A stretch of 64,000 nucleotides of DNA from Promethearchaeota archaeon. Its GTDB lineage: Archaea > Asgardarchaeota > Lokiarchaeia > Sigyniarchaeales > SOKP01. Where the stretch lies: assembly GCA_048938855.1 (NCBI GenBank), contig JBHLLT010000010.1, positions 32,001 to 96,000 of the forward strand. Direction: 5' to 3'. How positions within the stretch are numbered: position 1 is the stretch's first letter; the number at the start of each line of letters is the position of its first letter. A model generated the notes under the pieces. That model was not told the origin of the DNA and made no database searches. It saw nothing but the letters and a program-made list of their open reading frames with translations. The translations under genes and the position numbers were made by a program. Below, one piece after another: positions 6,781 through 60,632 of the stretch.

Positions 6781-8892
6781 TTAATTAATTTTTCTATAAT
6801 CAAACTCCCAAGTCTTTTTGACATAGAGTGAATCATTTATTGTATCATAGATAATTGCTCTTTCACTTAATCCCCCAATATCTTCAGCTTCTACTTCAAT
6901 TTGATGTTTATTTAATTGATCTTTAACAGCATCAATATTTTCTTGATATGTCATATCATAATCTAAAAATAATTTTGCTCCTCCAATAACTAATGCTCTA
7001 ATATTTGAATTTTTTCCTCCATGAAATATGATATTATTATACAAGTCTTTAACTCCTGTATCAATAAATGTATGAGGGAAAAGGAAGTGATAACCTTGTT
7101 TTGAAGCTGATGAAGAAGGTAACGACATATTGGATATAGCAAAAATGTTATTCACAGGATCCTTAAGTATTATACAAATTCCTGATCCTAAACCTTTTAT
7201 GACAAATTTTGTTGCAAGGTCATTTTTATCAAATGAATTGATTAATCCATAGTATCCCATGGGAATATTTAGTTCCCTTTTATCGTTTGGTTTATCTATA
7301 CGATCCATACGTTTTTCATCAAAAATATTGAAACTTTCTTCTGTTTCATTGCCATCTTTTGAAAATTCTTTCATTTGAACTTCATTTATCAAAAATTGTC
7401 GAGTATAATCTCCAGCTTTTATTATTCGGTGTTCAAATTGTTTTTCCTTTTGTTCTATTAATCTCTCTCTTTGATCTACTCGTTTTGTGAGCCGTTCTAA
7501 AATTTCTATGCGATCTTTAACTTCTTCTTCTTTCTCTTTAAGTTCTTTAATCAAATCATTTAATTTCTTTCTCTTTCTTTCAATTTTATTATATTTTTCA
7601 TCAATATATGTAATTCTCTCTTCGATTGCTTTTTCACGTTGCTCTAAAAGCAACTCACGTTGCCGTAACTTTTTGTCCCATTGTTTTAATGAAGATATTT
7701 TTGATTCGTTTTTATTATCATTCATTGATTCTTTTAATTGATTTTTATGATGTTTAAAACCATATCGATTTATTCCGTTATTAATGTCGATGCTAGTAAT
7801 CTTTACTTCTGTTTCTATATTCTCAAGTTTATTCAAATCATTGATATTTATTTCAGGTTTAGAAGTGTTTTTCTTAATTTTTATTTTAGTGTCATTTGAT
7901 ATACTATTAGATTTTGCTTTTATTTTTGGTTGATTATATTTACTATTAACAACTTCACTTATTCTACACATTGACTTTGTTTTAATTGGCTTAATAATCT
8001 CAATTTCAGAATATTTATAGTTTTTAAATAGATTAGAAATTTCATTTTTGAAATTAGCAGTGTGAGAAGAAAAGTTTTTTATATAAAAACGATCTCGCAT
8101 ATTAATTGACTTAAAATTAGTAATTTTAAGAGGAAGGGTCTCAGAGCCTCCTAATATTAGTAAACCTCCATCATAAAGCCGTGATTCTATCGTTTGTAAA
8201 AGTTTTTCTCTTGCAAATTGATTTATATAAATAAAAAAATTCCTGCAAAAGATAATATCATATTTTCCTTTTTTTTGATGTCCCTTTGTAATGTCTTCCT
8301 GAATAAATTCAACCTTACTTTTAATATCTTCTGAAAGATTAAACCTTGGACCAAAATCAGTGTCTTCTTTTGAAAAATAAGCTTTTAAATATATGTCTGG
8401 AGTTTCATGTACTGGATAATCTCCATAAACACCTTCTTTTGCAATTTTAAGAGCTGCTGGATCAATATCTGATGCTATTATTTCAAAGTCAGGGAAATTT
8501 TTATCAGCCTTCTTCAATCGGTCCAAGATCATTGCAATAGAATAGGGTTCATCTCCAGTAGCACATGGTGCTGACCATATTCGAATAATCCTATTTGAGT
8601 ATTTAACATAGGATTTGATAAAATTCTCAAAATTTTTGAAAGCCTTATAATTTCTGAAGAAGTAAGTATAGTTAATAGTGAATTTATCCAAAAAAAGGTC
8701 AATTTCAATAGGATTTTCACGAATATATTTTATATAATCTTGATAGTAATTTAGATTTAAGTTTTTCATCCTAAAATCGATACGTTTTTCAAGAAATTTT
8801 CTCTGATAATGTTCAAATTTCATTCCTGTTACAGTTCTTAACTCCTCTATAAGAGCATCTATGGATGAAGGATTAATTGATGATACGGAAAT
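6781..8892 (-). CDS. CheR-type methyltransferase – coiled coil – CheD-like fusion protein; probable ATT start at 8892 (first ATG at 8823)
   Basis: CheR motifs TINYTYFFR, RIWSAPCATGDEPYSIA, DID, DIIFCRN; C-terminal CheD-like LGSG/DP/LP/GGAK/EDIGG; upstream in-frame extension IDALIEELRTVTGM resembles the CheR N-terminal helix. Confidence 0.88.
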   Translation of the reverse strand: MSVSSINPSSIDALIEELRTVTGMKFEHYQRKFLEKRIDFRMKNLNLNYYQDYIKYIRENPIEIDLFLDKFTINYTYFFRNYKAFKNFENFIKSYVKYSNRIIRIWSAPCATGDEPYSIAMILDRLKKADKNFPDFEIIASDIDPAALKIAKEGVYGDYPVHETPDIYLKAYFSKEDTDFGPRFNLSEDIKSKVEFIQEDITKGHQKKGKYDIIFCRNFFIYINQFAREKLLQTIESRLYDGGLLILGGSETLPLKITNFKSINMRDRFYIKNFSSHTANFKNEISNLFKNYKYSEIEIIKPIKTKSMCRISEVVNSKYNQPKIKAKSNSISNDTKIKIKKNTSKPEININDLNKLENIETEVKITSIDINNGINRYGFKHHKNQLKESMNDNKNESKISSLKQWDKKLRQRELLLEQREKAIEERITYIDEKYNKIERKRKKLNDLIKELKEKEEEVKDRIEILERLTKRVDQRERLIEQKEKQFEHRIIKAGDYTRQFLINEVQMKEFSKDGNETEESFNIFDEKRMDRIDKPNDKRELNIPMGYYGLINSFDKNDLATKFVIKGLGSGICIILKDPVNNIFAISNMSLPSSSASKQGYHFLFPHTFIDTGVKDLYNNIIFHGGKNSNIRALVIGGAKLFLDYDMTYQENIDAVKDQLNKHQIEVEAEDIGGLSERAIIYDTINDSLYVKKTWEFDYRKIN

Positions 8893-9074
8893 TTTTTACA
8901 CCAAAACGCCTGCTATTAAGATTTTTTACTCTATTACCATAAAAATGTAATATTATTAATATTTTAGGGAAGAGAAATTTGTGATTGAGGGCGTAACAAA
9001 ACAGAACAACAGATTTTGTGGTAAAAAAATTTTAAGTATTAATTTTTTGAATCGTTGTAATAAAATCATAAAGA

Positions 9075-9824
9075 TTAATTTAGAGAGATGAAACCTAGTT
9101 TAATGAGATTTTTACATATATTATATACTTGATTTTGTTGTATATTTAGACTACCGGATATTTGAGTTATCGATTTTCTTCCATCTATTTGATCATAAAC
9201 CTTAAATGAATTTTCTCCTGTTAAATAATATCTCGGATTTATTTTTTTAGCAGTAGTGAAAATGGGTACATAATTATAATATTCAGGAGTTATTTCTACT
9301 GACTCCGATTCAATTAGTTTTTTTTGAATTTCAACTGGTTCGCGTTCAAAACTTCTTATCCAATCAACAACTTGATCATTATATTGAGCTTGCTCGTATT
9401 TTTGCTCCTCTTCAATAATACGTTCAATAACAGCATGGAATGATTCAAAACTGTTTAATCTTCCATTCCACTTTAAAATTTGATCGATCTCAAATTCTTT
9501 TAAAAATAAATCAGAAATTTTTTTTAAAATCTCTTGCACATCATTATGATTAGATTTTTTATCATATGTAGCAAGATAAATTAAATCAGGAATGATCTTG
9601 TCTTTTAAAAAAGAAAGCTTTAAATTATTATTCGAAAGTTTTAATTCACTTATTGTTCCTAAATCCTCAAATGAATCAGAAAATGAATTTAATGCTGAAA
9701 AAAACCCCGATACCATTATTAAATCATCTATTTCTGAAAATACATTTTTAATATTAGTTGAATTACACAAACTCTTAGATAATAGTGGTAATCCATCTTT
9801 TATAATCAGTACGTCGCAAATCAT
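9075..9824 (-). CDS. Longin-domain protein with C-terminal NPRL2-like winged-helix region
   Basis: N-terminal IIKDGLPL...SGFFSALNSF longin pattern; C-terminal VPIF...IDG..SI..I...L.......ICKNL...G. Confidence 0.72.
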   Translation of the reverse strand: MICDVLIIKDGLPLLSKSLCNSTNIKNVFSEIDDLIMVSGFFSALNSFSDSFEDLGTISELKLSNNNLKLSFLKDKIIPDLIYLATYDKKSNHNDVQEILKKISDLFLKEFEIDQILKWNGRLNSFESFHAVIERIIEEEQKYEQAQYNDQVVDWIRSFEREPVEIQKKLIESESVEITPEYYNYVPIFTTAKKINPRYYLTGENSFKVYDQIDGRKSITQISGSLNIQQNQVYNICKNLIKLGFISLN

Positions 9825-10045
9825 TAAACTCAGAAAAAAATCTCTTTTCTTTTTATAAAACTATTGCTGCCTTTCTTCGATTAATATATTTATGAAAATG
9901 AAAAAAAAAAAGAATTATAATACTTCAGTGATATCAGAATAATATAATTAGTCGTATAATAACAAGTTTTTAGGAGTACATTCTTGAATTTTCTTATCTT
10001 GTGAAAAACAATATGTTTAGAATTAAAATATGGAGCTGATATGTA

Positions 10046-10801
10046 TTGAAAGCGGTAATACTATGTGCTGGTTATGGAAAACGTCTAAAACCGTACACAG
10101 ATACATTTCAAAAATCTATGCTCCCTATTAATAACAAACCTCTTTTAGAATATGTTTTAAATGGTCTAATCTATGCAGGTTTTAAAGATTTCATTTTCGT
10201 TGTAGGTTATAAAAAAGAACAAATTTTGAATTATTTTAAAAATGGAGAGAATTGGAATATAAACATACAATACGTTGAACAAAAAAAGCTAAACGGTACC
10301 GGAGGAGCTTTATTAAAATGTCAAAGTGTTATAAATAATTCACACTTTTTCTTGACTTGGGGAGATATATTAGTACCTTATTCTGTGTATAAAGAAATAT
10401 TAGAAAAATTCAATCAAGAACATTATAATTTTATTTTAATATCTAACTATACAGATGATCCGTTTAAAGGAGCAGCTGTTTATATTAAACATGATTACTG
10501 CATAGATATTATTGAAAAGCCATCCCAAAGTGAATCTAAGTCAAAATTTAATAATACTGGAATTTTTATATTATCAAAAGAGATTTTTGAAATATTAAGT
10601 ACTCTCAAACCATCTAAACGTGGTGAAATTGAATTTACTGATGCATTAAGGATTGGAATTAAATCAAGAAAGTGGAAAGTCCGAGTCCTAAAAATGAAAA
10701 AAAATCAATTTCGAGGAGATTTTGGAGATAGAGACACTTATGAGAATTTAAAAGAAGAATCAACTTGGTTGAAAGAAATAATTAATGACAAAAAAGATTG
10801 A
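10046..10801 (+). CDS. Sugar-phosphate nucleotidyltransferase
   Basis: AVILCAGYGKRLKP, EQ..LNGTGGA, EKP, RGEIE; TTG start. Confidence 0.92.
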   Translation: MKAVILCAGYGKRLKPYTDTFQKSMLPINNKPLLEYVLNGLIYAGFKDFIFVVGYKKEQILNYFKNGENWNINIQYVEQKKLNGTGGALLKCQSVINNSHFFLTWGDILVPYSVYKEILEKFNQEHYNFILISNYTDDPFKGAAVYIKHDYCIDIIEKPSQSESKSKFNNTGIFILSKEIFEILSTLKPSKRGEIEFTDALRIGIKSRKWKVRVLKMKKNQFRGDFGDRDTYENLKEESTWLKEIINDKKD

Positions 10802-10941
10802 GAAATTTCAAACTTCTGTTCGAAATCTATGCTATCCAAAGCTCAAAAAAATACACCTTTTTATATTGGATCTTAGAAGTAATAATGAAAAAAGAAATCT
10901 ATTCTGATTAGAATTAAAGAAAATATAAAGGGATTCCAAGA

Positions 10942-11457
10942 GTGAACCAAATTCTTGAGCGAAAACGAGTTATTATTTTCATTGATCATGCTAACTTATT
11001 CCATAATATCGAAAAATTAAACATTCGGATTAACTATTTGAAGTTGAGAGATATTTTTAAAGGGAATCATCATTTAGTCGGTCTCTTTATGTATATGGGA
11101 ATCCCAGATAAGATTTTACCTAAAAAACTTAATTTTTTGAAATATTTGCAAGCGCAAGGATTTGTTATTCAACCAAAACCGGTTATAATTTCCCCGAATG
11201 GTGTTAAAAAACAGAAAGGAGTTGATATCTTTATTTATAAAGATATTGTAGAATTAGCCGAAGATGATACATATGACAAAGCAATTTTAGTCAGTGGAGA
11301 CTCAGATTTTTTAGATATAGTCCGAAAATTAAAAGAACTAAAAAAGGAAATTGAAATTTGGAGTTTTAAGAAATCAATCTCTCGATTATTAATAGAAGAA
11401 GCTGGTAAAAAAAATGTGTACTTTATTGATGATATCATAGACAAAATAAAATATTAA
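10942..11457 (+). CDS. NYN (LabA/DUF88, PIN-like) domain protein
   Basis: FIDHAN, QKGVD, LVSGDSDF motifs. Confidence 0.9.
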   Translation: MNQILERKRVIIFIDHANLFHNIEKLNIRINYLKLRDIFKGNHHLVGLFMYMGIPDKILPKKLNFLKYLQAQGFVIQPKPVIISPNGVKKQKGVDIFIYKDIVELAEDDTYDKAILVSGDSDFLDIVRKLKELKKEIEIWSFKKSISRLLIEEAGKKNVYFIDDIIDKIKY

Positions 11458-11514
11458 GAAAAAAAGGTAGTAGTTTAAAAAGAATGCTAAAGAATAAAAG
11501 TTGTTTTTCTAAAC

Positions 11515-11627
11515 AAACTTCTCCTTTATGAGAGAATGTGAGAAGAATTTCTAATTAAATCATTCGCTAATCTCTTTTCCCTTCGAAAAAAATCTTCTCA
11601 AAAGTTCTCTCTTTTTAGAGGAAGTTT
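11515..11627. repeat. Long imperfect inverted repeat (possible stem-loop)
   Basis: Nested arms AAACTTC/GAAGTTT, GAGAGAAT/GTTCTCTC and TGAGAAGA/TCTTCTCA. Confidence 0.55.
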
Positions 11628-11737
11628 TTATTTTTCTCTCTTCAAAAATTGGACTATTTAAAAAATAATAACAAAGAATTTTTATTTCTAAATATAATAA
11701 ATTCTATTATCAAAATTTTAAAATTAATGGAAAAAAA

Positions 11738-12307
11738 ATGAGTGAAAACGATAAATATAGGCACCGCTATTATTATAAGGAGTCATATGAAGCGGCTATC
11801 GGAACGTTAGCTACAGGATGTGTTTTTCTTTTTGTTGCAATTGTATCACTTGTTCTTAGAGCTATCCCTATAGACTTTATTGGACTTTCTGCATGGGGAT
11901 ATTGGCTTTTTATACCCGCATTTTTCATTTTTATAGGAGGATTTAACCAGCTTTACAGGAATGCAAAATATAAAAGAATTGTGAAGAATGCTCTTATCCA
12001 AAGAAATTTTCAAGGCACATACAAGCTAGAACATATTGCATTGGAAATTGGCATGAAACCAAGTATCCTACTACGTGTACTATTAGATCTAAGAAATCAG
12101 GGAGTAGTGAAATATAGTTTTGATCCTGAAACAGGACAAATTATCTTAGGCCAGCCAATCACATATACCCAAGCATCTGAATATGTTCCACCTCCTAAAA
12201 AAATTGAGGAGCCTTTAGAAACTGAAGGAAAAAATTATTGTGTTTATTGTGGTCATAAATTAGAGTCAACTGGAAATTTTTGTCCAAATTGTGGGTCTAA
12301 ACTGTAA
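11738..12307 (+). CDS. Membrane protein: 2 TM + PCI/winged-helix-like domain + C-terminal zinc ribbon
   Basis: Two hydrophobic segments, LEHIALEIGM...LLDL...G...SFD, CxxC...CxxC. Confidence 0.75.
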   Translation: MSENDKYRHRYYYKESYEAAIGTLATGCVFLFVAIVSLVLRAIPIDFIGLSAWGYWLFIPAFFIFIGGFNQLYRNAKYKRIVKNALIQRNFQGTYKLEHIALEIGMKPSILLRVLLDLRNQGVVKYSFDPETGQIILGQPITYTQASEYVPPPKKIEEPLETEGKNYCVYCGHKLESTGNFCPNCGSKL

Positions 12308-12506
12308 TTATTTGTTTAGGTTAACTATAATTTTCTTTTTTTTTTTAAATTACTCCTTGTTAAAAATAAAATCGGCATTAATCTTGTTATTTATTCTCTC
12401 TCTCTAGCAAATATATTTGGAAATATTTATCAATTCAAAAGCAGATAATCTCAATGAAAGTTATCATCACATTAAAAAAGAAATAAAAATAAAATTATAT
12501 TTAAAT

Positions 12507-13931
12507 TTAGGATACCAGTTTTGCCTTTTTCTCAGAGTGTAGTTTCTTAGCATCTTCAGTTAATTGAGTATATCTTTCTTTATTGATTGGGAAATAACTC
12601 ATTGCTATTATTCCAATAATTAAAAATATTATTGGAAATATAACCATGAGACTTCGAAGACCAAATTCTACCCCATATGTTGCTGTGCTAAGATCGAAGA
12701 TATTCCAATCAGTACCAATGAATACTAGTCCTATTGAGAGAAATACAACTACATTGGAAAATTTTACAATGAAACCGTTTATTCCATAAAAATTACCCTC
12801 TCTTCTTGCTCCCGTTTTTAATTCATCCTCATCAATAATAGCCGCAATTGTAATGTCTCTTACAATTAATACTCCAGCTAACCCTATTCCTAATAAGAAG
12901 AAGAATATAAAACCTAAGAGTACTCCTCTAATAAACATGAGAGGTATAAGTGTTGCTATAAACACTATTAAAGATAATAGATAAGATCCTTTAGCACCAA
13001 GTTTATTTACTAATATACGCCATGGAAATACAAATATAGCAGCCGAAACAAAACCAGTACCAAGTATTAAAGATAATATTAAAGCATCTTGAACACCTAA
13101 ACAAATAGCTCCATAAATTGGCATTAGAGTAGGTATCATATTAAATGCATACCATAATGCAAAATTCCCACAAACATATAGTCTGAACGACTTATATCCA
13201 AAAGTATATTTTAATGATTGTTTAAATGATGGAACTCTTTCATAATCTTTAGAAAACTCAATTCTTTCTTTTAGTCCAAATTTAATAAAAATAAACCCCC
13301 CTATTGCGCAAATCACTGAAATTGCCACTGCAGCGAATATATACTGTAAATGTGTAGTTCCAATAGGTACACCTTCACTGGTGTAATTATCAATGAACAA
13401 TCCAGGCAATAAAAAAGCAATCAATAATGCTATCACTTGAAAAAATTGGATTGAATTATTAGCTTTTGACCTTTGATCCAAATCACGAAACATCTCTGGA
13501 AATAAACTAGTTTGGTTTAATGAATACATTGTATAGAAAAGCTCCCAAATTACAATTATTATTAAGAAGTATATAAAAGATACAATATCAGATCCTCTAG
13601 GTGCAGTAAATAGTAGTATATTTATAACTAATAGGGGAATTATACCCATTATGATGAATGGTTTTCTACGACCCATTTTAAAGTGTGATCTATCAGAAAT
13701 AGCACCGAGCATGGGATCATTAAAAGCATTCCATATTGACCATATTATGAAACCAAGAGATATGAATACTGCTGGCAATTCTATTATAGAATAATAGAAT
13801 GTAAATATCAGGAAAGTAAAAAATTGTAAAATTATTACATCTGTAAAGCCAGCAAAACTATAAAAAACAGCTTTTTTTAAGGTATATTCTTCTTCCACCT
13901 TGTTTTGTTTTTGAGACATAATTTTTTCCAA
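12507..13931 (-). CDS. MFS transporter, glycoside-pentoside-hexuronide (MelB-like) family
   Basis: WNAFNDPMLGAISDR, GRRKPF, DEDELKTGARREG; many TM segments. Confidence 0.92.
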   Translation of the reverse strand: MEKIMSQKQNKVEEEYTLKKAVFYSFAGFTDVIILQFFTFLIFTFYYSIIELPAVFISLGFIIWSIWNAFNDPMLGAISDRSHFKMGRRKPFIIMGIIPLLVINILLFTAPRGSDIVSFIYFLIIIVIWELFYTMYSLNQTSLFPEMFRDLDQRSKANNSIQFFQVIALLIAFLLPGLFIDNYTSEGVPIGTTHLQYIFAAVAISVICAIGGFIFIKFGLKERIEFSKDYERVPSFKQSLKYTFGYKSFRLYVCGNFALWYAFNMIPTLMPIYGAICLGVQDALILSLILGTGFVSAAIFVFPWRILVNKLGAKGSYLLSLIVFIATLIPLMFIRGVLLGFIFFFLLGIGLAGVLIVRDITIAAIIDEDELKTGARREGNFYGINGFIVKFSNVVVFLSIGLVFIGTDWNIFDLSTATYGVEFGLRSLMVIFPIIFLIIGIIAMSYFPINKERYTQLTEDAKKLHSEKKAKLVS

Positions 13932-14153
13932 TCTGTTTATAATTTTTAGAAAGATGAATGCAAATAATTAATATTATTTTGTTCTTATCATTTATAAAAA
14001 TTCAATCTACTGAATATTTTATTATAAATTTTCAATAATATACTGGGCTACAACCAGCTATTCATATTTCCACTAAATTCAGAGAGGCTTTTTTTTTAAA
14101 TACCATATCGGTTTTAAATATATCAAATTGAATTTTCTCTGAGATGAAATATA

Positions 14154-14621
14154 ATTTCTAAAGGCTTTATCAATAAAGATTCCATTGATATATCTATTGA
14201 AAATACTTCTACACAGGCTGATCCTAATAACTTCAACCCTAATGAAATTCAACAATTTGAAAAAAATAAAATATCTAAATTACTCTCAGAGTTATTTAAC
14301 GAAGTAAAGTCCAAAGAGGATTTAAACTACATATCAAATATTTTGGCAAATATTCTTAACGAGAATAATATAAAATGTCAAAGTGAGACTGAGAAAAACA
14401 GATCCCCTTTTAATATAATTAGTATTGATGAATTCAAAAAGACAAAATCTATTATCTCAAGCGCAGAAAACGAATACCTTTCCATTTTGAATGATCTTCA
14501 TGCAATTTTATTAAACTGCTCTGAATTTTCAAATTCCCAAAAACTAGATTTTTGTACAAACCAACGGTATTTTATGAAAAAATATTTGAAAGAAATCTTA
14601 TTTAAGCTGAAATTGGTTTAA
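14154..14621 (+). CDS. Hypothetical protein; frame is open from 14148, probable ATA (14151) or ATT (14154) start rather than TTG at 14343
   Basis: 65 stop-free codons upstream of the tracked TTG, preceded by GAGATGA. Confidence 0.6.
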   Translation: MSKGFINKDSIDISIENTSTQADPNNFNPNEIQQFEKNKISKLLSELFNEVKSKEDLNYISNILANILNENNIKCQSETEKNRSPFNIISIDEFKKTKSIISSAENEYLSILNDLHAILLNCSEFSNSQKLDFCTNQRYFMKKYLKEILFKLKLV

Positions 14622-17306: not shown

Positions 17307-17321
17307 AGAGTAGGATAAAAA

Positions 17322-31939: not shown

Positions 31940-32803
31940 TTAAAATTCATTAATTAACGTTGAATAATCTTTTTCTTCTTCCGATGCATGTAAGTACATA
32001 AGCAGTTCAGCTAATTCATTATCATTTTTCACTCCTGGAACCACAGTAGAGATTGCATTTTGAGAAAGTGTATAATTTAAACATTTAATTGGTGTTATGT
32101 CCGATGGAATTTTTTTTTTTAAACTAATGCCTCCAGATTGATATTTTGCTATAGTGACTGTACGATTTCTTTGTAATAGTTTACCGCCAGCAAAAGGTTT
32201 TATCGCAACTAGACCAATATTTTTTTTATTACAAATAGCCAATAATTCACTTCTTTCCTTAATATGGTGATTAACCATATTTATTTGTGTCATTATTATA
32301 TCAAAATGACCACTCAATGCTGCTTTCTTACCTATAGCAGCATTATGAGTGCTCATCCCTAAATATCTTACTTTTCCCTCTTTCTGTAATTTTTTAGCTA
32401 AATCTAATAATCCTCCAGAAGATATTATTGATTCATATTCTTTTTCTTTAACAAACTGTAAATTAATAATATCAATATAATCCTTTCCAAATTTCGACAA
32501 ATTTTTCACAAATATTTGTTCGCAATCTTTAATATTTCGTGATCTTTGCACTTTTCCATTTTCTTCAACTGAACCTAAATGGCAAGTGATAATTATATTA
32601 TCTTTAAAATCTTTAATAGCAGAACAGATATTATCAATATACTCTGACACATTGAAAACAATATCAAAATAATTAATTCCATCCTCAATAGCTTTTTGTA
32701 ATACAGAAACAACTGTTTTCTTAGGTTGTCTAAATAAATACTCAGTCCCTAGGCCAATCTCACTAACTTTTAAATTTGTTCTTCCTAATGTACGAAATTT
32801 CAT
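31940..32803 (-). CDS. Aldo/keto reductase
   Basis: RTLGRTNLKVSEIGLG, GINYFD, GKVRYLGMSTH, KPFAGG. Confidence 0.9.
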   Translation of the reverse strand: MKFRTLGRTNLKVSEIGLGTEYLFRQPKKTVVSVLQKAIEDGINYFDIVFNVSEYIDNICSAIKDFKDNIIITCHLGSVEENGKVQRSRNIKDCEQIFVKNLSKFGKDYIDIINLQFVKEKEYESIISSGGLLDLAKKLQKEGKVRYLGMSTHNAAIGKKAALSGHFDIIMTQINMVNHHIKERSELLAICNKKNIGLVAIKPFAGGKLLQRNRTVTIAKYQSGGISLKKKIPSDITPIKCLNYTLSQNAISTVVPGVKNDNELAELLMYLHASEEEKDYSTLINEF

Positions 32804-33310: not shown

Positions 33311-33520
33311 TTATTGAGAATATTTTTCTATAATATAATTTTGTAGAGAACATATATACTTCTCAAGATTTAAGCTCAAAATCCTCTGTTCCACTTCACG
33401 TAGGTATGTGACATCTAAGCAATTAAACAACTCTTTCAGCTTTTTAACTGTGTCAAATAATTCAACAATTGTATTCCAATCATGTGCCCATTCATAATCT
33501 TGAATATCTTCAACTTCTAT
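33311..33520 (-). CDS. Small helical protein missed by the ORF track (xEVEDIQDYEWAHDWNTIVELFDTVKKLKELFNCLDVTYLREVEQRILSLNLEKYICSLQNYIIEKYSQ); ATA (33520) or ATC (33523) start
   Basis: 69 sense codons without a stop, protein-like composition, strong GAGGT SD-like motif immediately upstream. Confidence 0.68.
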   Translation of the reverse strand: MEVEDIQDYEWAHDWNTIVELFDTVKKLKELFNCLDVTYLREVEQRILSLNLEKYICSLQNYIIEKYSQ

Positions 33521-33660
33521 GATTTTTAATTACCTCTTTATCCTTTTTTGTTAATTATTGAGAGAATATGATAATTTATCATAAAAAGTATTTAGATACT
33601 CTTGGAAAAGTAATTTATTGTATTTTTAAGATTAGAGATAAAATCTACAATAAAATTATA

Positions 33661-36615: not shown

Positions 36616-37107
36616 TCATTTCTCTCCAACTTTTACTGCAACTTTATATAGTTCTTTATTAATAAAAATAAAACCATTTAGCTCTTTACTTTTAGCATTC
36701 ATAATTGTCCAGATTATATGCTTAAATGTTGTTCTTTCACTGTTATAATAACCTTCTATATAAGGTAAATCAATACCACTTGGATAGGCACTCCCCGGAT
36801 GAGAATGAAAAATACTAAACATCTGATAATTATAATTTTTAGCATATGAATAGGAGATATTAAATATCCTCTCATAATCATCCATTAAGAAAGCGACTGG
36901 ATTTTTGTGAGAAGATTCAATACATTCGAACTTATATGCGTTGTAATGATAAGAAAATTCATTCTCTCTGTTGGGTATTTTTCTTTCTTCTATTTTTCCA
37001 AAAATTAAACCACATGCCTCATTAGGAGTAGCTTTCTTAACACATTGTATAATTTCTACAACAATTTTATCATCAATATATAGAATGATATCCTTTTCAT
37101 ACTTCAA
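36616..37107 (-). CDS. JAMM/MPN+ (Mov34) metalloprotease
   Basis: PNEACG and FHSHP...PS..D JAMM motif. Confidence 0.9.
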   Translation of the reverse strand: MKYEKDIILYIDDKIVVEIIQCVKKATPNEACGLIFGKIEERKIPNRENEFSYHYNAYKFECIESSHKNPVAFLMDDYERIFNISYSYAKNYNYQMFSIFHSHPGSAYPSGIDLPYIEGYYNSERTTFKHIIWTIMNAKSKELNGFIFINKELYKVAVKVGEK

Positions 37108-40604: not shown

Positions 40605-41333
40605 TTGGATATCGAAGAAAAAATTGATCAATACTTAAAAATCAGACGTGCATTGCAACCAGCAATTATTCCCAATGAATCTGCACTCATAATTATTGAT
40701 ATGCAAAATTATCAAGTCAAAGAAACATCACCCATTATAGAATGGGCTGAAAAAACGGTCCCTGGTCTATTTGATTATTTTGTTAAACAAATTGATGAAG
40801 TAGTAAATCCAAATATAAATCGATTAGTAGAATTCTTTCGAGCAAACAAAATCCCTATATTCTATACAAAGTTTGCAAGCTTTAGAAATGATCGAACAGA
40901 TTATTCCAATAATATACGAGCTATTAATGAAATGTCCGAAAATATGATCGGTAAATATATATTTCCATCTGTTCAAGATCCTCTTGCTGATATTATCCCT
41001 GAGTTAAAACCAGAAGAAAATGATATAATAGTAATAAAGACAACTAATGGAACATTTAGCTCAACAGATCTCGAGCATCAATTGAGGAATATAGGGATGA
41101 ATACTGCAATAATTGTTGGGGTGGTTTCTCATATTTGTGTCGAGAATACTGCAAGAATAGCGTTTGATTTAGGATTTAACGTTTATTTAGTTGATGATGC
41201 ATGTGCGGGATGGTCTCCAACTCTACATAATGCTGCTTTAAGAGGGATGGAATTATTCTTTGTAAGTATCATCTCTACAGAAGAACTTCTCAGAAGCCTA
41301 AATAAACAATTGAAAAAAAAGAATGAAAAATAA
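40605..41333 (+). CDS. Isochorismatase-family cysteine hydrolase
   Basis: IIDMQN, K, GVVSHICVENTAR. Confidence 0.9.
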   Translation: MDIEEKIDQYLKIRRALQPAIIPNESALIIIDMQNYQVKETSPIIEWAEKTVPGLFDYFVKQIDEVVNPNINRLVEFFRANKIPIFYTKFASFRNDRTDYSNNIRAINEMSENMIGKYIFPSVQDPLADIIPELKPEENDIIVIKTTNGTFSSTDLEHQLRNIGMNTAIIVGVVSHICVENTARIAFDLGFNVYLVDDACAGWSPTLHNAALRGMELFFVSIISTEELLRSLNKQLKKKNEK

Positions 41334-52671: not shown

Positions 52672-54093
52672 TTATTTCTTAGGTTTGTCTTCCATTGTTT
52701 CCCTAATGGAAGGAATTACGAAATCTTTAGTAGTTGGCTTTTCTATAATCTCTAAAAGATCATATTCTGTGATCATTTGAAGAACTCCCATAACTTTCAT
52801 GCCGTGATTATACGTTTCATTGGCATCTGAGAGATTCCTCCAACAAAACGGACATTCGGTGGTTAAGATATCTGCTCCAACAGCATTCGCTTCATCACAT
52901 CGAAGACTTGCTGTTTTTATTGAAAATTCAGGATATCCAGCCCTTACACCGCCACCTGCTCCACAACACATGCTATTTAGTTTTATTCGATACATCTCTT
53001 TGAACTTTATTCCAACGTCTTCTTCAAGTTTTCTAAGAATAATCCGTGGGACTTCATACCACGCATCAATTGCTTCTTTAATTTTTCGACTATCCATCAT
53101 AAGATTAGTCGATTTCTCAATCATATCTTGTTCCATATCAACTGCGAAATGCCTTCCTGTATGACAAGGATCATGATAGGTGACTACTTTTCCCTTCAAT
53201 TCTTTATTGGTTTTAAATTTAATTTTCCCCTGTTCTACTAATCTTGCTACAAGTTCAAAAGCGTGTTGTGTTTTAAAAGGAAGTTTTTCACCTTCAGACA
53301 TCCATTTTGGATAATCAATAGTAAATGTTCTATAACACCCAGCACAACTGAAATACACCATTTCAACATTTTTAAATGCTTCAAGATTTTTCTTCATTAA
53401 TTCTTGTGCAGTATCAACAGCTCCCACCCTAAAGAATGGGCTTCCACAACAAACTTCATCAGCAACCAATGTAAAATTCATTCCTAATTGTTCAAATAAT
53501 TTGGCTGTTGCTATTGCTACCTCTACTTGTCGATAACTAGCGGTACATCCTACATAGTAAGCAATTTTTGCTTCTTTATTATTAATAAACTTTTCTAAAC
53601 CCGCATCTTTAGCCCATTTTAGTCGCTCGTCAGCAGCACCCCCATAGGGATTATTTCGTTCTTTTACTAATTTATCTACTAGTTCATGCTTGTCTATCAT
53701 TGGTACGCCAGATTCCATGCATGCGGCTCTTAATGCTTCGATAATATCAACTGTTCTAACCTTATTTTCACATTGAGCCGAACATTGACCGCATGTAATA
53801 CAAGGTAAAATAACATCTCGAACTTCTTCTGTAAATTCTAAATCACCACTTAAAATAGAGCGAGCAATCCATATTTTTCCTGCATTCCAGTAAGCTTCCC
53901 AGCCATATTCGATCCCTGCTGGACAAGCGTCGACCATTCCTTCATAGAGCACAGTTCCTTGTTTTCCAGTATATTCCCCAATTCCTTCTTTATCAGGTTC
54001 ACCAGAATAGGCAAATCTACATGCTTTACAATGAATACATTTATAAATATCCTTTTTTAATTCTTGTAATCTTTCCATTCCTGTTTTAGCCAT
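52672..54093 (-). CDS. HdrD/GlpC-like Fe-S oxidoreductase (ferredoxin-like + two CCG domains)
   Basis: CIHCKAC, CITCGQCSAQC, EVCCG, YHDPCH, CCGAGGG, ECPFC. Confidence 0.92.
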   Translation of the reverse strand: MAKTGMERLQELKKDIYKCIHCKACRFAYSGEPDKEGIGEYTGKQGTVLYEGMVDACPAGIEYGWEAYWNAGKIWIARSILSGDLEFTEEVRDVILPCITCGQCSAQCENKVRTVDIIEALRAACMESGVPMIDKHELVDKLVKERNNPYGGAADERLKWAKDAGLEKFINNKEAKIAYYVGCTASYRQVEVAIATAKLFEQLGMNFTLVADEVCCGSPFFRVGAVDTAQELMKKNLEAFKNVEMVYFSCAGCYRTFTIDYPKWMSEGEKLPFKTQHAFELVARLVEQGKIKFKTNKELKGKVVTYHDPCHTGRHFAVDMEQDMIEKSTNLMMDSRKIKEAIDAWYEVPRIILRKLEEDVGIKFKEMYRIKLNSMCCGAGGGVRAGYPEFSIKTASLRCDEANAVGADILTTECPFCWRNLSDANETYNHGMKVMGVLQMITEYDLLEIIEKPTTKDFVIPSIRETMEDKPKK

Positions 54094-54114
54094 TATTTTA
54101 TCAACCTCCTTATT

Positions 54115-55605
54115 TTATGGAAGAGCTAGTCTTCCTGGATGCATTATCATATTTGGATCAACAAGCTTCTTGAATGCTCTTAAATATTTCCAATACATAC
54201 CAGCTTGATAATAAGCTTGTACGTGAATATAAGGATCAGGGCGGTAATTCAACCAGCCTTGTTTAAGTGCATATTCAGTTGTATCCTGATTCAACTCTTG
54301 AACCTTTTCCAAGTCGGATTGTTTAGTAGAATCAAAGCACACGATTGGCATACAGATTGCTTGTCTACATCGTTCAATACTTGCAATCCATATTACTGGG
54401 GGGAATCCATAATCTTCCATTTTTTTCGTATACATGTCAGCAAAATGCCCACATTCCGGCCATGGAGTATACCAAGTAATGAAAAGAAAGCCTGCTTCCC
54501 AAAAGCTATAAGGAATAGCGATTTTATTTGGCTTTTTCATTCGACTTGCGATCTGTTTAGGATGTAGTTCCTGTTTGACAATAGCATCAGGGCTTTTTGC
54601 TCTTTTTTTAAAATCTTCAGCCATTTTATCAATTTTACTAGTTGCATAATCAAGTTCTTCTTGAGTTTGTGCCCATGTTTCCCAATTCATCCACCACTGA
54701 GAAATACCAATTTCTTTATAGAAGGCATAATCGTGAGGGATTTTATCCTTGGGCCATCGAGCCATTACAAGGGGGTAGTTTCCTCCTTGAACCATAACAG
54801 TATGATGGCTAATTCCAAATTCTTGTTTAGCAACTTCAAGAGTCAAATCCTGCATATCGTAAGGATTGTCCATACCCCAAACAACAACAGTTTTAAATTT
54901 AGGGTGGGGATATATTTTCACAGCAGCTTTTGTAACTACGCCAAATGCCCCCTGGCTCCCCATAAGAAAAGACCACATATCAGGTCCTATCCCATACTTA
55001 TAAAAAGGTTTAGCAAAAGGGAGAGCCCACGAACCAGTTCGTACTACATCTCCATTAGGGAATACAATCTCACCACACATAAAGTTATCTCCTTGCGGAC
55101 CTACTGAAGATGTGTATAGAGAGAATCCTCGATCGATTGCATCACCCATAACTGTTGCTGCGGGTGGAGCCCCATCAGGAATTGGAGGTGCCCAATCTGG
55201 ATGGTATTTATGCATATAACTCCAAAGCTGCCCATTTGTGACCCCTGGTTCTATTACACAATAGCGGTTATCCTCATCTATTTCAATAATCCTATTCATT
55301 CTGCCTAAATCAAGCAATACTCCACCTGGTTTAATAGTTGGGCATGCAAAACCACCTGATAGACCAGCAGATACAGGACTTACAGCAATCTTCTCTGCAG
55401 AACAGTATATCAAGATTTTACGTATTTCTTCAACATATTTTGGTCTAACGACAATATCGGGAATTTGTGATTCTAAACCCATTACCGATTTTGCCAGATA
55501 ACCTGCAGTAATCGCTTTATTATTTGTTGCATACTCTTTACCGACAATACCAATCATAGCTTCCAAATCTTTTTCATCCGGTAATTTATAGCTCATAATT
55601 TCCAA
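54115..55605 (-). CDS. FAD-binding oxidoreductase (VAO/PCMH/GlcD superfamily)
   Basis: PDIVVRP, DLGRMNRI, EPGVT, GPD....GSQGAFGVVTK, DPNMIMHPG. Confidence 0.9.
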   Translation of the reverse strand: MEIMSYKLPDEKDLEAMIGIVGKEYATNNKAITAGYLAKSVMGLESQIPDIVVRPKYVEEIRKILIYCSAEKIAVSPVSAGLSGGFACPTIKPGGVLLDLGRMNRIIEIDEDNRYCVIEPGVTNGQLWSYMHKYHPDWAPPIPDGAPPAATVMGDAIDRGFSLYTSSVGPQGDNFMCGEIVFPNGDVVRTGSWALPFAKPFYKYGIGPDMWSFLMGSQGAFGVVTKAAVKIYPHPKFKTVVVWGMDNPYDMQDLTLEVAKQEFGISHHTVMVQGGNYPLVMARWPKDKIPHDYAFYKEIGISQWWMNWETWAQTQEELDYATSKIDKMAEDFKKRAKSPDAIVKQELHPKQIASRMKKPNKIAIPYSFWEAGFLFITWYTPWPECGHFADMYTKKMEDYGFPPVIWIASIERCRQAICMPIVCFDSTKQSDLEKVQELNQDTTEYALKQGWLNYRPDPYIHVQAYYQAGMYWKYLRAFKKLVDPNMIMHPGRLALP

Positions 55606-55822
55606 CCCATTAACTAATCTTCAACTTTTAGATTTTATTTAATTAAAATTATTATTTTGGAAAATTAAGTACTGAATTTTAAATTTTCTTATATCTTTTT
55701 CATACAAACAATGATATTTTCTTATAGAAGTAATGTTTCATTTCTATAAGTTAAAAATTATTTTAAGTAAAGAAGTAAAAATCTATAAAATAACGAGAAT
55801 TCATGAAACTCCTATTCTTATT

Positions 55823-56368
55823 CTAATTTTCAATCGTTATAAATTTACCAATTTTAGAATTAATTTGATGTGTTGTTCTTCTCTTATCATTTGCTTTGTA
55901 ATCAAGAAAAAGTTCATTGTAATCATCAATAAATTCCCAAAATTCTTCATAAATTTCTTTTGAACTCATCTTTTTTCTTTCTATTTTGTGATTTTGTGTT
56001 AAAACTTTTGGTTTGATTTCTTTTTGTTTAGCTATAGGCTTAAATTCAACTTTATCTCCATTAAAAATTAGCTTTTGGAAATAATTACCATATTTCTCCT
56101 TAGACACATTAAAAGCTTTTACACCATTCCTTAAGATCTTAGAGTTATCCTGGGGTAATTCCAAATCTACTTTTTGATAACCTCGAATTTGAAAATTCTT
56201 ATCGATAAAAAACTGAAAGTGATGCGGACAAATTAAACCTTTATGAACTGAAACTGTAGTTAATTGGGTTTCTTTATTTAATCTTGAAGGTGGTATACCC
56301 ACAGCATCCCGTGTTTTACAAATTGGGCATATAACTTGAATTTTATTTGTCTTGCCGAGGATAACCAT
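55823..56368 (-). CDS. Hypothetical protein with N-terminal CxxC...CxH zinc-binding motif
   Basis: CPIC...ICPHHFQFFID...IRGYQKVD. Confidence 0.75.
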   Translation of the reverse strand: MVILGKTNKIQVICPICKTRDAVGIPPSRLNKETQLTTVSVHKGLICPHHFQFFIDKNFQIRGYQKVDLELPQDNSKILRNGVKAFNVSKEKYGNYFQKLIFNGDKVEFKPIAKQKEIKPKVLTQNHKIERKKMSSKEIYEEFWEFIDDYNELFLDYKANDKRRTTHQINSKIGKFITIEN

Positions 56369-56531
56369 TAATTCTCACATTAATAAAATAAATCTATACC
56401 TTTCAAAAATCTCTTAAACATAATATTTAAACTAAGCATTTTTATTGGTTATGACCGAATCTTTAAGTTCAAAAAAAAATTTTTCCAATTATATCACTAT
56501 TTGTAATTCTATTCTGGAAAGAGTTGATATC

Positions 56532-57941
56532 ATGTCAGAATTGGATGTTTTTTTTCACCCAAAATCAATCGCGATAATTGGAGCGTCAGATAGTTTTAAA
56601 TTTGGATATAATACAACGAAATATTTATTGGAATCAGAGTTTAAAACATATCCAGTTAATATAAAAAAAAAAGAAATACATGGTCATAAAGCGTTTAAAA
56701 GTGTAAAAGATATTCCTGAAGAAATCGATTTAGCAATAATACTTGTTGGAAATGAATTCGTTCTTCAAACAGTAAAGGATTGTATCGAAAAAGGTGTGAA
56801 GGGTATAGTAATTGAATCGGCTGGTTTTGCAGAGACTGGTGTTGAAAGATTTATAAAAATTCAGAAAGAAATTGAAAATATTGCTAAAAAGTCGAAAGTA
56901 CGAATTATAGGTCCAAATTGCGTAGGAGTAACAGATTTTAATAATCAATTTACAACTGCAGATATGAGTTTTGATGAAGCAATTAATGGAAAAGTAGCAG
57001 TTATAGCACAATCTGGAGTTCTTGGCAACATATTTATAGATTGGGCGACTGACAAAGGAATTGGCTTTTCTAAAACTATCACAATCGGAAACAAGGTAGA
57101 TGTTGATGAGGTCGATCTATTAAAATATTTAAACAAAGATCCTGAAACTAAAGTCATTACTCTTTACTTAGAAGGCACCAAACGAGGAAAAGAATTATTA
57201 GAAACGTTTAAAAATATGGTAAAACCGGTTCTAATTTTAAAAAACGGGAAAAGCGATATAGGGTCAAAAGCAATTACCAGTCATACTGGTTCAATGGCGG
57301 GGAATAATAGAATATATGATGTCGTTATAAAGCAAAATCCACGAATTTTTAGAGTAAACAATTTTTATGAAATGTTTAATATAGCACACGTATTTGCCAC
57401 TCAACCCTTGCCCGTTGGAAAAAATGTGTCTATTATTACAGGTTCTGGAAGTTTGGGAGCCTTGGCCTGTGATGAAATTGAAGAACAAGGCTTAAGCTTA
57501 GCAAATTTAAGCGAACATACTATAGCTATTATTAACTCAGTAATCCCTAATTGGGTATCAATTAAGGGTACTATTGATTTAGGGCCTTCCATATTTCAAA
57601 CATTTATTCCTGTTATAAATGCGATTTTCGAAGATAAGAATGTGGATTGCGTTTTATATATTTTTTCAGTTCCTCGATGGCCACTTCAAATAATGGGTTC
57701 GATGGCCACAAATTGGGCAATCGAGCAATTTAGAGCTATTAAATTATTAATACAAAAATTTAATAAGCCATGTATCTGCGTATGCTTTGGTTCTGGATGG
57801 ACATTTGATTTTCTTAGAAAATCAGAGTCTAAATCTAATTCAGAAGTAACAATTCCAATAATGAGTAGGATAAAGCATGCTGTAATAGCGTTTAGAATGA
57901 TGAATGAATTCAATAAAAATCAATTTGACAGCTCTAACTAA
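56532..57941 (+). CDS. Acyl-CoA synthetase (NDP-forming) alpha subunit
   Basis: PKSIAIIGAS, YPVN, SAGFAE, GPNC, QSG, SHTG phospho-His. Confidence 0.92.
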   Translation: MSELDVFFHPKSIAIIGASDSFKFGYNTTKYLLESEFKTYPVNIKKKEIHGHKAFKSVKDIPEEIDLAIILVGNEFVLQTVKDCIEKGVKGIVIESAGFAETGVERFIKIQKEIENIAKKSKVRIIGPNCVGVTDFNNQFTTADMSFDEAINGKVAVIAQSGVLGNIFIDWATDKGIGFSKTITIGNKVDVDEVDLLKYLNKDPETKVITLYLEGTKRGKELLETFKNMVKPVLILKNGKSDIGSKAITSHTGSMAGNNRIYDVVIKQNPRIFRVNNFYEMFNIAHVFATQPLPVGKNVSIITGSGSLGALACDEIEEQGLSLANLSEHTIAIINSVIPNWVSIKGTIDLGPSIFQTFIPVINAIFEDKNVDCVLYIFSVPRWPLQIMGSMATNWAIEQFRAIKLLIQKFNKPCICVCFGSGWTFDFLRKSESKSNSEVTIPIMSRIKHAVIAFRMMNEFNKNQFDSSN

Positions 57942-58057
57942 TTTAAAAAAAAAATTTACTTTTAAACTAATTTTAAAAACTGGACTCCAAATTTTTTTAA
58001 TTTGACTAAGATCTACCCATAATTAAGTAAAAACAAATTAAATGAAGTGATAAAATA

Positions 58058-58591
58058 GTGTTCGATTTTAGTAATATTGCTACTGCTTGGCAAGAAATTG
58101 TAAACTGGTTTTTAGCCCAACCACTCTTTGCACAAGTACTTGTAATTATTGGAGTTGTTGCAGTTTTAGTGCTTGCGGTAATTCTAGTTTATTATGTCTT
58201 GAAAGGAATTGGCTATTTAATTTACTATTTGTTTAAAGGTATTTATTATCTATTTAAAGGAATAGGTCTACTGATTTATAAGATTTTTGAAGGGTTATAT
58301 TACGCAATTTCGGGGAAACCTAAGCCAAAGAAATGCTGTGAGGTTCCCAATGAACAACAACCAACGCAGCAACAATCGACTCAACCTGCTCAGGTAAAGG
58401 AAGAAGAGCCAATTGTACCCATACAAAAAACTCCTCAGGTAGTTCACTCCGAAATAACTTTTTGTAGTGAATGTGGAAATAAGTTCACTGATACAATGCT
58501 TCAATCCTTATCAGAAACAGGAGTTGCATATTGTATTCATTGTGGAAGCAAGAAAACTCAAGAATACCAAATGAGTATTGAAAGTCAATAA
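58058..58591 (+). CDS. Membrane protein with Q/P-rich linker and C-terminal zinc ribbon
   Basis: TM, KGI.YL repeats, CSEC...CIHC. Confidence 0.75.
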   Translation: MFDFSNIATAWQEIVNWFLAQPLFAQVLVIIGVVAVLVLAVILVYYVLKGIGYLIYYLFKGIYYLFKGIGLLIYKIFEGLYYAISGKPKPKKCCEVPNEQQPTQQQSTQPAQVKEEEPIVPIQKTPQVVHSEITFCSECGNKFTDTMLQSLSETGVAYCIHCGSKKTQEYQMSIESQ

Positions 58592-58607
58592 ATTTTTTTA
58601 TTCTTTT

Positions 58608-59477
58608 TTATTTTTTTAAAGCTTTTTCAAATAACAAGACACCAAATCGTTTATCTTCATGATATTGAAATCCTATCTTCTTGATCAGATCTACTACATC
58701 ATGTTTACAAAATACCTCAAAAATTTTTGTTCCTTTAGTTTCAAGCTCCTTTTGAATTGTATATTGAATTAAATCACATGCCCCTTTTGGATTTCCATAA
58801 ACTATCATCCATACTTCTTGTTCTAATGGAAGCTCATAATCATGAGGGTTTTCGAATTCAATTTTTTGCAAAATAGCCTCTTTATTATAAATCCATGAAC
58901 CAAGTTCAGTATTAATATATTTTAATGGAATGAAAGACCAACCAATACAAATCTCATCTCCAGGACCAATGTTAAATTCCTTATAAATCTGTTTTGCATC
59001 ATCATCAGTAAGTACATCAATGTTAGGATTAATTTTGCCGGATAATTTAACATCATCAGAATTTACCATTACTAGATCCATACATTTTTTTTGTTCAAAT
59101 CCATAAAACTTTGCTAATTTTATTGATGCATAATTATCAGAAGCAGTATCATATTGAGCTACCTTTACTCCTGATTTAGCTGCATATTTTACAGCATAAC
59201 CTAATTGCATTTTACCAATTCCTTGACCTTGATATGAAACTTTTATTCTTCCTCCTTCTAACCATGCTACATCATTATTATATAGCTTTACACGTCCAAA
59301 TCCTATTAAATTTGTTTTATCTTTATCCTCAAATGTACCATAATTCATACTTCTCTTATCTTGGAGCCATTTTTCTATAACATGAGGGACATAATCATCT
59401 CCCTCCCAAATATCTTTACTAATATCTTTTATTGCTGGAATATCAGCGATGGTTAGTTCTCGGAAATAGACTTTCAT
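58608..59477 (-). CDS. GNAT family acetyltransferase
   Basis: WLEGGR....QGQGIG, N.AS.KL...GF. Confidence 0.88.
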   Translation of the reverse strand: MKVYFRELTIADIPAIKDISKDIWEGDDYVPHVIEKWLQDKRSMNYGTFEDKDKTNLIGFGRVKLYNNDVAWLEGGRIKVSYQGQGIGKMQLGYAVKYAAKSGVKVAQYDTASDNYASIKLAKFYGFEQKKCMDLVMVNSDDVKLSGKINPNIDVLTDDDAKQIYKEFNIGPGDEICIGWSFIPLKYINTELGSWIYNKEAILQKIEFENPHDYELPLEQEVWMIVYGNPKGACDLIQYTIQKELETKGTKIFEVFCKHDVVDLIKKIGFQYHEDKRFGVLLFEKALKK

Positions 59478-59551
59478 AAAAATTCCTTTATTACATCTGA
59501 ATATTGAAAATTAATAATATAAAATCTGGAAAAAATAAATTCTTTATTGTT

Positions 59552-60139
59552 TTAGGCTTTAAAATACCTTCTGTATAGACTATAATACAGAAAAAATGCC
59601 AGAATATAATGGATTAATATGCAGGGTAAAATACCTACGTTTAAGAATATATAACCAATGTATAGTCCCATTAAGAATGTATATGCCAAGTTTATCAATA
59701 AAATAGTTAAATTCTTAAATGCAAACCATGTATGAATATGATATAAAGAGAAAACTACACTCGAAATAAGAATTACAGAAATTTCGCTAAAATTTAGTGA
59801 AATACTCAAGAAGCCGATTAAATAATATCTAAAAATTAATTCTTCCATAATTATTGTAAGAGGAAAGAACAAATATAATACAAATCTGTTGTTTTTAGTA
59901 ATTAATGCGCTCATAACGTCGTGGTTTCGCATCAATTCAATATTCTCATTATTAAAAATAAATATTTCAATAAACTTCCCAAGAATTATAAGTACAACTA
60001 AACCTAATAAAAATGCTAGAATAAAGAACGGATCTAATACAGTAATAAAAGTATATTGAATATAAACTCCAAAAATCATTGGGATAAATAAGAAAAAAGA
60101 AATGACTACAATTATAGCATATTTACCTGAATATTCCAA
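59552..60139 (-). CDS. CPBP (Rce1/Abi-type) intramembrane protease
   Basis: EELIFR, FSLYH, ILIH. Confidence 0.85.
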   Translation of the reverse strand: MEYSGKYAIIVVISFFLFIPMIFGVYIQYTFITVLDPFFILAFLLGLVVLIILGKFIEIFIFNNENIELMRNHDVMSALITKNNRFVLYLFFPLTIIMEELIFRYYLIGFLSISLNFSEISVILISSVVFSLYHIHTWFAFKNLTILLINLAYTFLMGLYIGYIFLNVGILPCILIHYILAFFLYYSLYRRYFKA

Positions 60140-60219
60140 TCAATACCAACCTAATTTCCTATATTATTTAAAAAGAAAACCTTGAATTTAATTTAATCAA
60201 ATTAGATGTATAAGAAAAT

Positions 60220-60504
60220 TTAGCTAGGGTAATCATTTTTAGAACCCATAAGCGTGGTGGTTTCTTCGATCCATTGAGATAAGTCTTTATCAACTCTACA
60301 AAATGTGACAATTTTATCTATATCTCTTAATTTAGAAAAGGAACACTCTACAATTACATCCCAACCACCATATATTGGTGTAGCATAAGTAATTTTCCAA
60401 TCTTCATCTGGTTCTGTTGATTTTAAATTAGTCAATTTCTCAACAACCCTCCATTCTGTCCCAATTGCTTTTAGCCGTATTAAGATATAACCCCTATAAT
60501 AAAT
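60220..60504 (-). CDS. Stand-alone Lrp/AsnC ligand-binding (RAM)-like protein; probable ATT start at 60504
   Basis: Extension IYYRGYILIRLKAIGTEWRVVEKL supplies the first strand and helix of the fold; YGGWDVIV and ETTT motifs. Confidence 0.78.
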   Translation of the reverse strand: MYYRGYILIRLKAIGTEWRVVEKLTNLKSTEPDEDWKITYATPIYGGWDVIVECSFSKLRDIDKIVTFCRVDKDLSQWIEETTTLMGSKNDYPS

Positions 60505-60632
60505 TTCTTACACCTGTAGCTTCAAAATTATTCAAATTATTATTTTTTCTAATAATTATAACCTTACTTTAAATTGGAATATATTTAAGTACTTCAATGT
60601 TTCTAATATAAATTGTTTTAATTAAAATTTAT

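Follow-up and report, generated by a model that had tools for sequence, protein, structure and literature searches.

In a 64,000-nucleotide stretch of DNA from a Promethearchaeota archaeon of the Lokiarchaeia (the window; positions 32,001 to 96,000 of contig C43 in the assembly called G000 here, which has 3.95 Mb and 30% GC), four conserved genes appear to begin at ATT, ATA, or ATC (jointly ATH, or AUH in the mRNA) instead of one of the canonical start codons ATG, GTG, and TTG. Our best reading, to which we give a probability of about 85%, is that the ordinary initiator tRNA (Met-tRNAi) starts a few percent of the genes in the Lokiarchaeia family of G000 (host family) at near-cognate codons positioned by a Shine-Dalgarno (SD) sequence. 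In G000 itself, ∼3 to 5% of the genes, including those of ribosomal protein uS10 and initiation factor aIF1, very probably begin at an ATH codon exactly behind an SD. The DNA sequences reveal coding conservation from the ATH codon onward, dependence on the SD, a sharp spacing, and a gradient among lineages. Given that the 16S rRNA of G000 ends in the anti-SD tail GAUCACCUCCU, the SD is AGGAGGUGAU.

To quantify these starts, we used a set of 3,404 coding frames of G000, obtained with a codon model and a home-made caller, and screened for codons near the 5′ stop with an SD in register and no canonical codon nearby. ATH was in register with an SD of at least 5 nt in 67 of 1,760 cases, against 16.1 expected (p ~1e-21). 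This bears out, at the sequence level, the proposal in the preliminary description of this DNA that SD-driven ATH initiation is genome-wide and enriched in this lineage. The codons standing out were ATG, TTG, GTG, and ATT/ATA; in the same genome, the decoy codons AAT, TTA, TTT, and AAA showed no SD-register excess, and the off-register and gene-interior controls were flat. With a looser SD and a spacing (the number of bases from the aligned U of GGUG to the start codon) of 7 to 9, the excess was 416 for ATG, 100 for TTG, 73 for ATT, 33 for ATA, 20 for GTG, 8 for ACG, 6 for CTG, and 4 for ATC, the ATH share of about 110 genes corresponding to 3.2% of all genes and ∼17% of SD-led starts. Strong SDs without a canonical codon had ATH in register in 53 of 75 cases, compared with 2 to 8 for decoy codon sets. 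Genome-wide counts of DNA patterns without gene context yielded no usable contrast, and a metagenome scan returned one locus.

The geometry of the ATH starts is narrower than that of ATG, with a single sharp spacing peak: 46 of 92 ATH sites have a spacing of 8, versus 39 of 206 ATG sites (p=1.5e-7), and the SD contains GGTG at 48 of 68 ATH sites versus 52 of 178 ATG sites. The preliminary description had called for a look at SD spacing, where an enrichment is indeed seen, but its notion of low-stringency start selection does not fit, since ATH requires tighter SD spacing than ATG.

Comparison of orthologues between G000 and the related genome G006 gave about 10 credible cases of a forced ATH start among 232 pairs (4 to 5%, as judged by eye); some other forced cases were excluded by eye as false positives, caused by probable selenocysteine TGA read-through or by the alignment of noncoding DNA. 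Frames that open right after an in-frame TGA and are conserved on both sides of it were seen in G000 at C34:377355, C74:54569, C64:6140, and C10:11162, where the TGAs are probably selenocysteine codons that mimic missing starts. ATG-anchored orthologue spectra were too sparse for a rate. The codons interchange within single columns: uS10 starts with ATA in three host-family genomes (G000: C70:173845, minus strand) and with ATG in two genomes of the other family of the same order (sister family).

The habit is graded among lineages. Per 100 SD-led canonical starts, the excess of ATH was 20 to 23 in G000, 25 to 54 in G006, 13 to 22 in other host-family genera (small samples; the 200-kb samples of G100, G171, and G055 are each underpowered alone), and 2 to 7 in the sister family, represented by the putative Promethearchaeum syntrophicum MK-D1 (G050) and the putative Loki-B35. 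G006 repeats the signal (11 ATH versus 2.3 expected), and the pooled sister-family set of 965 genes has 8 versus 2.5 expected (p=0.004), although related genomes are, through kinship, not statistically independent. In Methanothermococcus (400 kb, 32% GC), an AT-rich, SD-heavy euryarchaeon and our outside control, no excess was found (2 ATH versus 1.3 expected; 1 to 6 per 100, not significant), so that the rate in G000 stands above that of the one AT-rich control genome compared. By these sequence counts, the habit is strongest in the host family and 3- to 10-fold weaker, but present, in sister-family genomes, including the putative MK-D1. As a separate observation, the eS19 gene of the putative MK-D1 (L339:17425-17859, minus strand) has only an ATT behind GAGGT, and its first canonical codon lies 71 codons in; an out-of-frame ATG stands 7 nt upstream, and a one-base assembly error could account for the ATT start.

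The four ATH genes of the window, located from stop-to-stop frames, are all conserved from an ATH codon just past an in-frame stop, which lies 1 to 2 codons upstream at each site. Thus, the four starts of this layout that had been pointed out are confirmed as conserved among orthologues and as more than chance; three of the sites match, and the fourth, at 14151, comes from the present analysis. The first canonical codon follows 23 (8892), 64 (14151), 31 (33523), and 23 (60504) codons downstream. The SD-like motif that had been described at each stop is present at 8892 (GGTG, spacing 7), 33523 (GAGGT, spacing 8), and 60504 (AGGTG, spacing 7), while 14151 has only an imperfect one. ATG stands in the ATH column in some orthologues of three of the four genes (8892, 33523, and 60504), as also for uS10; such an alignment of Met to ATH is what had been proposed as a check.

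One of the four is the gene of a conserved 94-amino-acid protein (60220-60504, minus strand) with an ATT start at 60502-60504, preceded by AGGTG and then the in-frame TAA (60508-60515). Across 30 loci, the first conserved column holds ATT in 16, ATC in 7, ATG in 6, and TTG in 1. In 17 of the ATH loci, a stop in the same frame lies no more than two codons off, and the earliest canonical codon is found between +7 and +85. GGTG precedes the gene in all 23 ATH loci and in none of the 7 ATG/TTG loci, showing that the SD was lost along with the switch to ATG. The extension contains 254 synonymous versus 55 nonsynonymous codon differences, and 269 of 367 changes fall on third positions, while the changes in the DNA upstream are even across codon positions (167/161/152). 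Judged by this pattern, the extension is under coding constraint and the DNA upstream of it is not, so the possibility that such extensions are unconserved does not apply here. In a public collection, this protein is stored in a shortened form of 71 amino acids.

The CheR-CheD fusion gene (6781-8892, minus strand) has its ATT at 8890-8892, and its CheR_N domain (Pfam) starts at residue 13 of that frame, ahead of the first ATG. The start column is ATT/ATC/ATA in 28 of 29 loci and ATG in one. Its SD core GGTG (8902-8899) abuts the in-frame TAA (8898-8896; together 8896-8902) and is kept in 26 of the 28 ATH loci, in varying frame, while the single ATG locus has no GGTG. On the same strand, an uncalled conserved protein of 70 amino acids (33311-33523) starts with ATC at 33521-33523 (or, alternatively, ATA at 33520) behind a GAGGT that overlaps the in-frame TAA (33530-33536). 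A homologue occurs in 48 of 53 genomes of the host genus; the orthologue L357 has ATG in exactly the start column, and in other orthologues the called start falls within the SD itself. This family, with 180 database homologues, has no Pfam match; a paralogue lies at C47:17786-17980, and the gene adjoins tRNA-Pro and SRP19.

The fourth gene, on the plus strand up to 14621, encodes a conserved protein of 155 to 156 amino acids and has consecutive ATA and ATT codons at 14151-14156. We favor the ATT at 14154, to which the imperfect SD points at the preferred spacing of 8. This SD, GAGATGA (14141-14147), is the weakest of the four, and it encloses the in-frame TGA. About 30 host-genus genomes align from residue 1 or 2, and all 8 orthologous sequences read have an in-frame TGA, one codon, and then ATA/ATT ATT; GAGATGA is kept in 7 of them, with GAGTTGA in the eighth. 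The N terminus is absent from all 18 database homologues. Misannotation of the kind predicted in the preliminary description is therefore real, as the 14151 and 60504 proteins illustrate, but at ∼3 to 5% of genes it falls short of a systematically truncated proteome.

How such starts could work may be pictured from known archaeal initiation. An in-frame stop often bars an upstream start, and the SD, usually GGUG or GGUGA, lies at a nearly fixed distance from the codon. Pairing of the 16S tail with the SD would hold the AUH codon in the P site, where the ordinary Met-tRNAi (anticodon CAU), brought by aIF2, would pair with two of its three bases. If aIF1 misses rejection often enough for useful output, proteins starting with Met would result, mainly from AUU, then AUA, and rarely from AUC, ACG, or CUG.

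The initiation machinery appears complete. Judging by its sequence, the initiator tRNA (C31:27734, minus strand) is canonical, with anticodon CAU, A1-U72, three G-C pairs in the anticodon stem, and an intron, and aIF1, two copies of aIF1A, aIF2 alpha, beta, and gamma, and aIF5B were all found in G000. The basic loop of aIF1 aligns to the solved aIF1 of M. jannaschii, and the equivalent residues in Pyrococcus bind the 30S subunit (PMC6237735). The P-site motifs of 16S rRNA are identical between the host family (G100) and the sister family (G050). Two differing 16S 3′ ends occur in G000 (C18:2254-3160 and C40), both with the same anti-SD; the C18 fragment may be a contaminant, and the C40 fragment matches relatives. 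The uS9 tail (C79:93924, minus strand) ends in SFR, versus SYR in the putative MK-D1. In yeast and bacteria, the C-terminal tail of uS9 contacts the P-site tRNA and influences fidelity. The aIF2-gamma of G000 (C22:674-2215, plus strand) carries an N-terminal helix-hairpin-helix (HhH) extension of about 95 amino acids (HHH_5, E 1.8e-12); long aIF2-gamma frames (476 to 540 amino acids) occur in most genomes of the host order and in none of the other Asgard genomes sampled. The aIF1A paralogues lie at C13:35326-35532 (minus) and C55:53711-53917 (plus); of 35 genomes, 4 have a second aIF1A, and these all belong to the host family, with contamination possible. The duplication is sporadic and does not track the ATH habit.

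aIF1 is itself affected. Its gene in G000 (C31:6353, plus strand; L127:1426-1740) starts with ATT and has no canonical codon ahead of the zinc knuckle. All 30 readable host-family genomes have ATT, ATC, or ATA 6 to 7 codons before the zinc knuckle, and never ATG; 25 of them have no canonical alternative. In most, the SD is off-optimal, at a spacing of 11. Among other Asgard zinc-knuckle aIF1 genes, 12 of 52 have no canonical start and are forced to ATA or CTG, and GTG and TTG starts occur there too. The start is TTG in the putative MK-D1, ATG in the putative Loki-B35, and ATG in three of three Methanococci. In vitro, aIF1 of S. solfataricus selects against AUU, and both IF3 and eIF1 control their own synthesis via weak starts (PMC4705826); by analogy, aIF1 is a plausible candidate for autoregulation through its own ATH start. 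More speculatively, the permissiveness could be a set-point: with aIF1 made from an AUU behind a poorly spaced SD, its level would settle where well-placed AUH codons pass. The combined idea, that such autoregulation has lowered the fidelity set-point, that AUH forms an efficient fourth class of starts (e.g., in uS10), and that the aIF1 starts of Asgard archaea are a prokaryotic forerunner of eIF1 autoregulation, is offered tentatively, at somewhat below even odds.

Several points weigh against SD-positioned initiation at AUH by Met-tRNAi. Initiation at ATH itself is deduced from DNA. In our sequence-level survey, no lesion that would explain relaxed fidelity was found in aIF1, aIF2, aIF1A, aIF5B, the initiator tRNA, or the P-site 16S motifs, and the inspection of aIF1 and aIF2 that the preliminary description had proposed thus turned up no defect. 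The changes in aIF1 are common to the sister family, whose ATH habit is far weaker, and near-cognate aIF1 starts also occur in Asgard lineages that lack a genome-wide ATH measure. Finally, the control is a single non-Asgard genome of 400 kb, and the gene caller was home-made.

The alternative that fares best is a dedicated change in the apparatus, which we regard as doubtful; aIF1 or aIF2 could be a variant, the HhH fusion of aIF2-gamma could be responsible, a tRNA could be modified, or there could be an additional initiator tRNA of the Ile type. aIF1 has diverged in the host order, the C-domain of aIF2-gamma scores lowest in the host family, the aIF2-gamma of G000 carries the N-terminal HhH domain, and the recovered tRNA set is incomplete. 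However, the aIF1 changes and the long aIF2-gamma frames are shared with the weak-habit sister family, several host-family members have short frames, a normal CAU initiator exists, and an Ile anticodon would not account for the enrichment of ACG and CTG.

We consider it unlikely that ATH starts are weak, gene-specific throttles for low expression under normal stringency, as in infC and pcnB. The starts are spread over more than 100 unrelated genes, among them that of uS10, a protein needed in ribosome-level amounts, and close orthologues of the 60504 gene exchange ATH for ATG freely, even though the aIF1 and CheR-CheD starts, which shun ATG as described above, would suit a throttle, as would the output of AUU and AUA starts in S. 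aureus, at ∼10 to 30% of that of AUG (PMC13009471).

It is very improbable that ATH is bypassed altogether, through canonical entry upstream combined with stop read-through, frameshifting, splicing, or RNA editing, or that AUA simply means Met. An in-frame GTG-TAA does precede the 8892 and 60504 genes, but this GGTG occurs in different frames from one orthologue to the next, with the ATH column fixed; an out-of-frame ATG (14144) overlaps the 14151 site, but orthologues do not keep this ATG, and the codon that follows it differs among them. Moreover, the upstream DNA is free of coding constraint. Editing would have to convert U to G, given that ATT dominates, and to our knowledge no U-to-G editing exists. 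Internal Met columns pair with ATA 31, ATT 26, and TTA 34 times, i.e., without a preference for ATA, and by this measure AUA is still Ile in elongation and not reassigned to Met. It is barely credible that AT-richness, misassembly, or pseudogenes produced the pattern: ATH is abundant at 30% GC, and counting frames whose first canonical codon lies far in, which we abandoned, failed to separate G000 (4.2%) from the control (4.8%), but AT-rich decoy codons are not enriched, the 32% GC control is negative, and dozens of independent assemblies share the layout.

The TTG and GTG starts listed for the window in the preliminary description are at the positions given, four of them with orthologue support (10046, 60139, 58058, and 10942) and two (37107 and 40605) by Pfam domains only, but they are no anomaly, TTG and GTG starts being normal in archaea (PMC7531240). 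On the plus strand, these are the TTG of a nucleotidyltransferase (10046-10048; TTG in most orthologues, with GTG, ATG, or, in two, CTG in the others), the GTG of an NYN-domain protein (10942-10944; one orthologue), the TTG of an isochorismatase-family protein (40605-40607), and a GTG at 58058-58060 (ATG in the column in two orthologues; the adjacent ATA at 58055 is possible). On the minus strand, they are the TTG of a JAB-domain protein (37105-37107) and that of a CAAX protease (60137-60139; TTG/GTG in most orthologues of the genus). In the JAB-domain and isochorismatase-family proteins, the Pfam domain begins before the first ATG. Among strong-SD genes, TTG and GTG make up 25% in G000 versus 7 to 9% in Methanothermococcus or the putative MK-D1. 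CTG stands in the start column of the 10046 orthologues L161 and L182, as well as at C81:82626 (minus strand) of G000, so that near-cognate use reaches past ATH; ACG starts were seen at C74:20621, at C54:2386, and in a TFB-like gene of G100. On the minus strand, the 9075-9824 gene has an element CTGAG(A/T)TTA (9825-9833) immediately ahead of its ATG; about 25 orthologues keep this element, which could be a variant SD or a signal for transcription.

In a large Asgard family, some 100 to 200 genes per genome would be truncated or left uncalled by tools that accept only ATG, GTG, and TTG, which touches N-terminal motifs, small proteins, and the marker genes of work on eukaryote origins, and may feed the view that SDs are rare in Lokiarchaeia. 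SD-positioned AUH initiation by Met-tRNAi would also amount to a natural case of relaxed start choice with intact aIF1 and aIF2 in relatives of eukaryotes, and because the habit is graded between families, the fidelity determinants can be compared directly. Candidate sites in the putative MK-D1 genome (G050) make the question testable, namely the ATT of a TrmO-like gene at 115,847 (plus strand), the ACG of an ABC permease gene at 1,110,114 (plus strand), and the ATT of eS19 at 3,097,859 (minus strand); the putative cultured species fall in the sister family with the weaker habit, which bears on the profiling of initiation that had been proposed for cultured Lokiarchaeia.

AUH starts are already known for a few bacterial genes and in mitochondria, and their use on a genome scale in archaea would be new; we found no report of it in literature coverage that left out most subscription journals. 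Bacterial infC (encoding IF3), E. coli pcnB, and S. aureus cvfC1, ccpN, and citZ have AUU or AUA starts (PMC4705826, PMC13009471), and they resemble the genes described here in combining a start mismatched at the third position with a strong, well-spaced SD and a conserved N terminus without a canonical alternative; the SD at an optimal, conserved spacing is found in G000 as well, weakly for 14151. As with infC, such a codon starts the gene of a fidelity factor itself. The bacterial cases are a handful of genes (S. aureus has four reported sites, E. coli two classic ones), whereas G000, with archaeal aIF1/aIF2 and known from its sequence, has ∼110 or more, ATH being as frequent as TTG and commoner than GTG among SD-led starts. 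With archaeal initiation proofread by aIF1, it shares the factors, the canonical initiator tRNA, and the anti-SD tail, but archaeal reviews list only AUG, GUG, and UUG (PMC7531240, PMC6237735), to which G000 would add AUH. eIF1 autoregulates through an AUG in poor context (Ivanov 2010, as summarized in PMC4705826); in both systems the start signal of the orthologous factor is weak and of a type that this factor rejects, although eIF1 uses a poor Kozak context and aIF1 of G000 a near-cognate codon with an SD, in a feedback that is putative. The routine use of ATT, ATA, and ATC in an AT-rich genome recalls the ATN starts of mitochondria (PMC11775629). ATH in G000 differs in being SD-associated, in leaving AUA as Ile, and in serving a few percent of the genes. 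Mitochondrial mRNAs, for their part, are leaderless, and AUA often means Met there.

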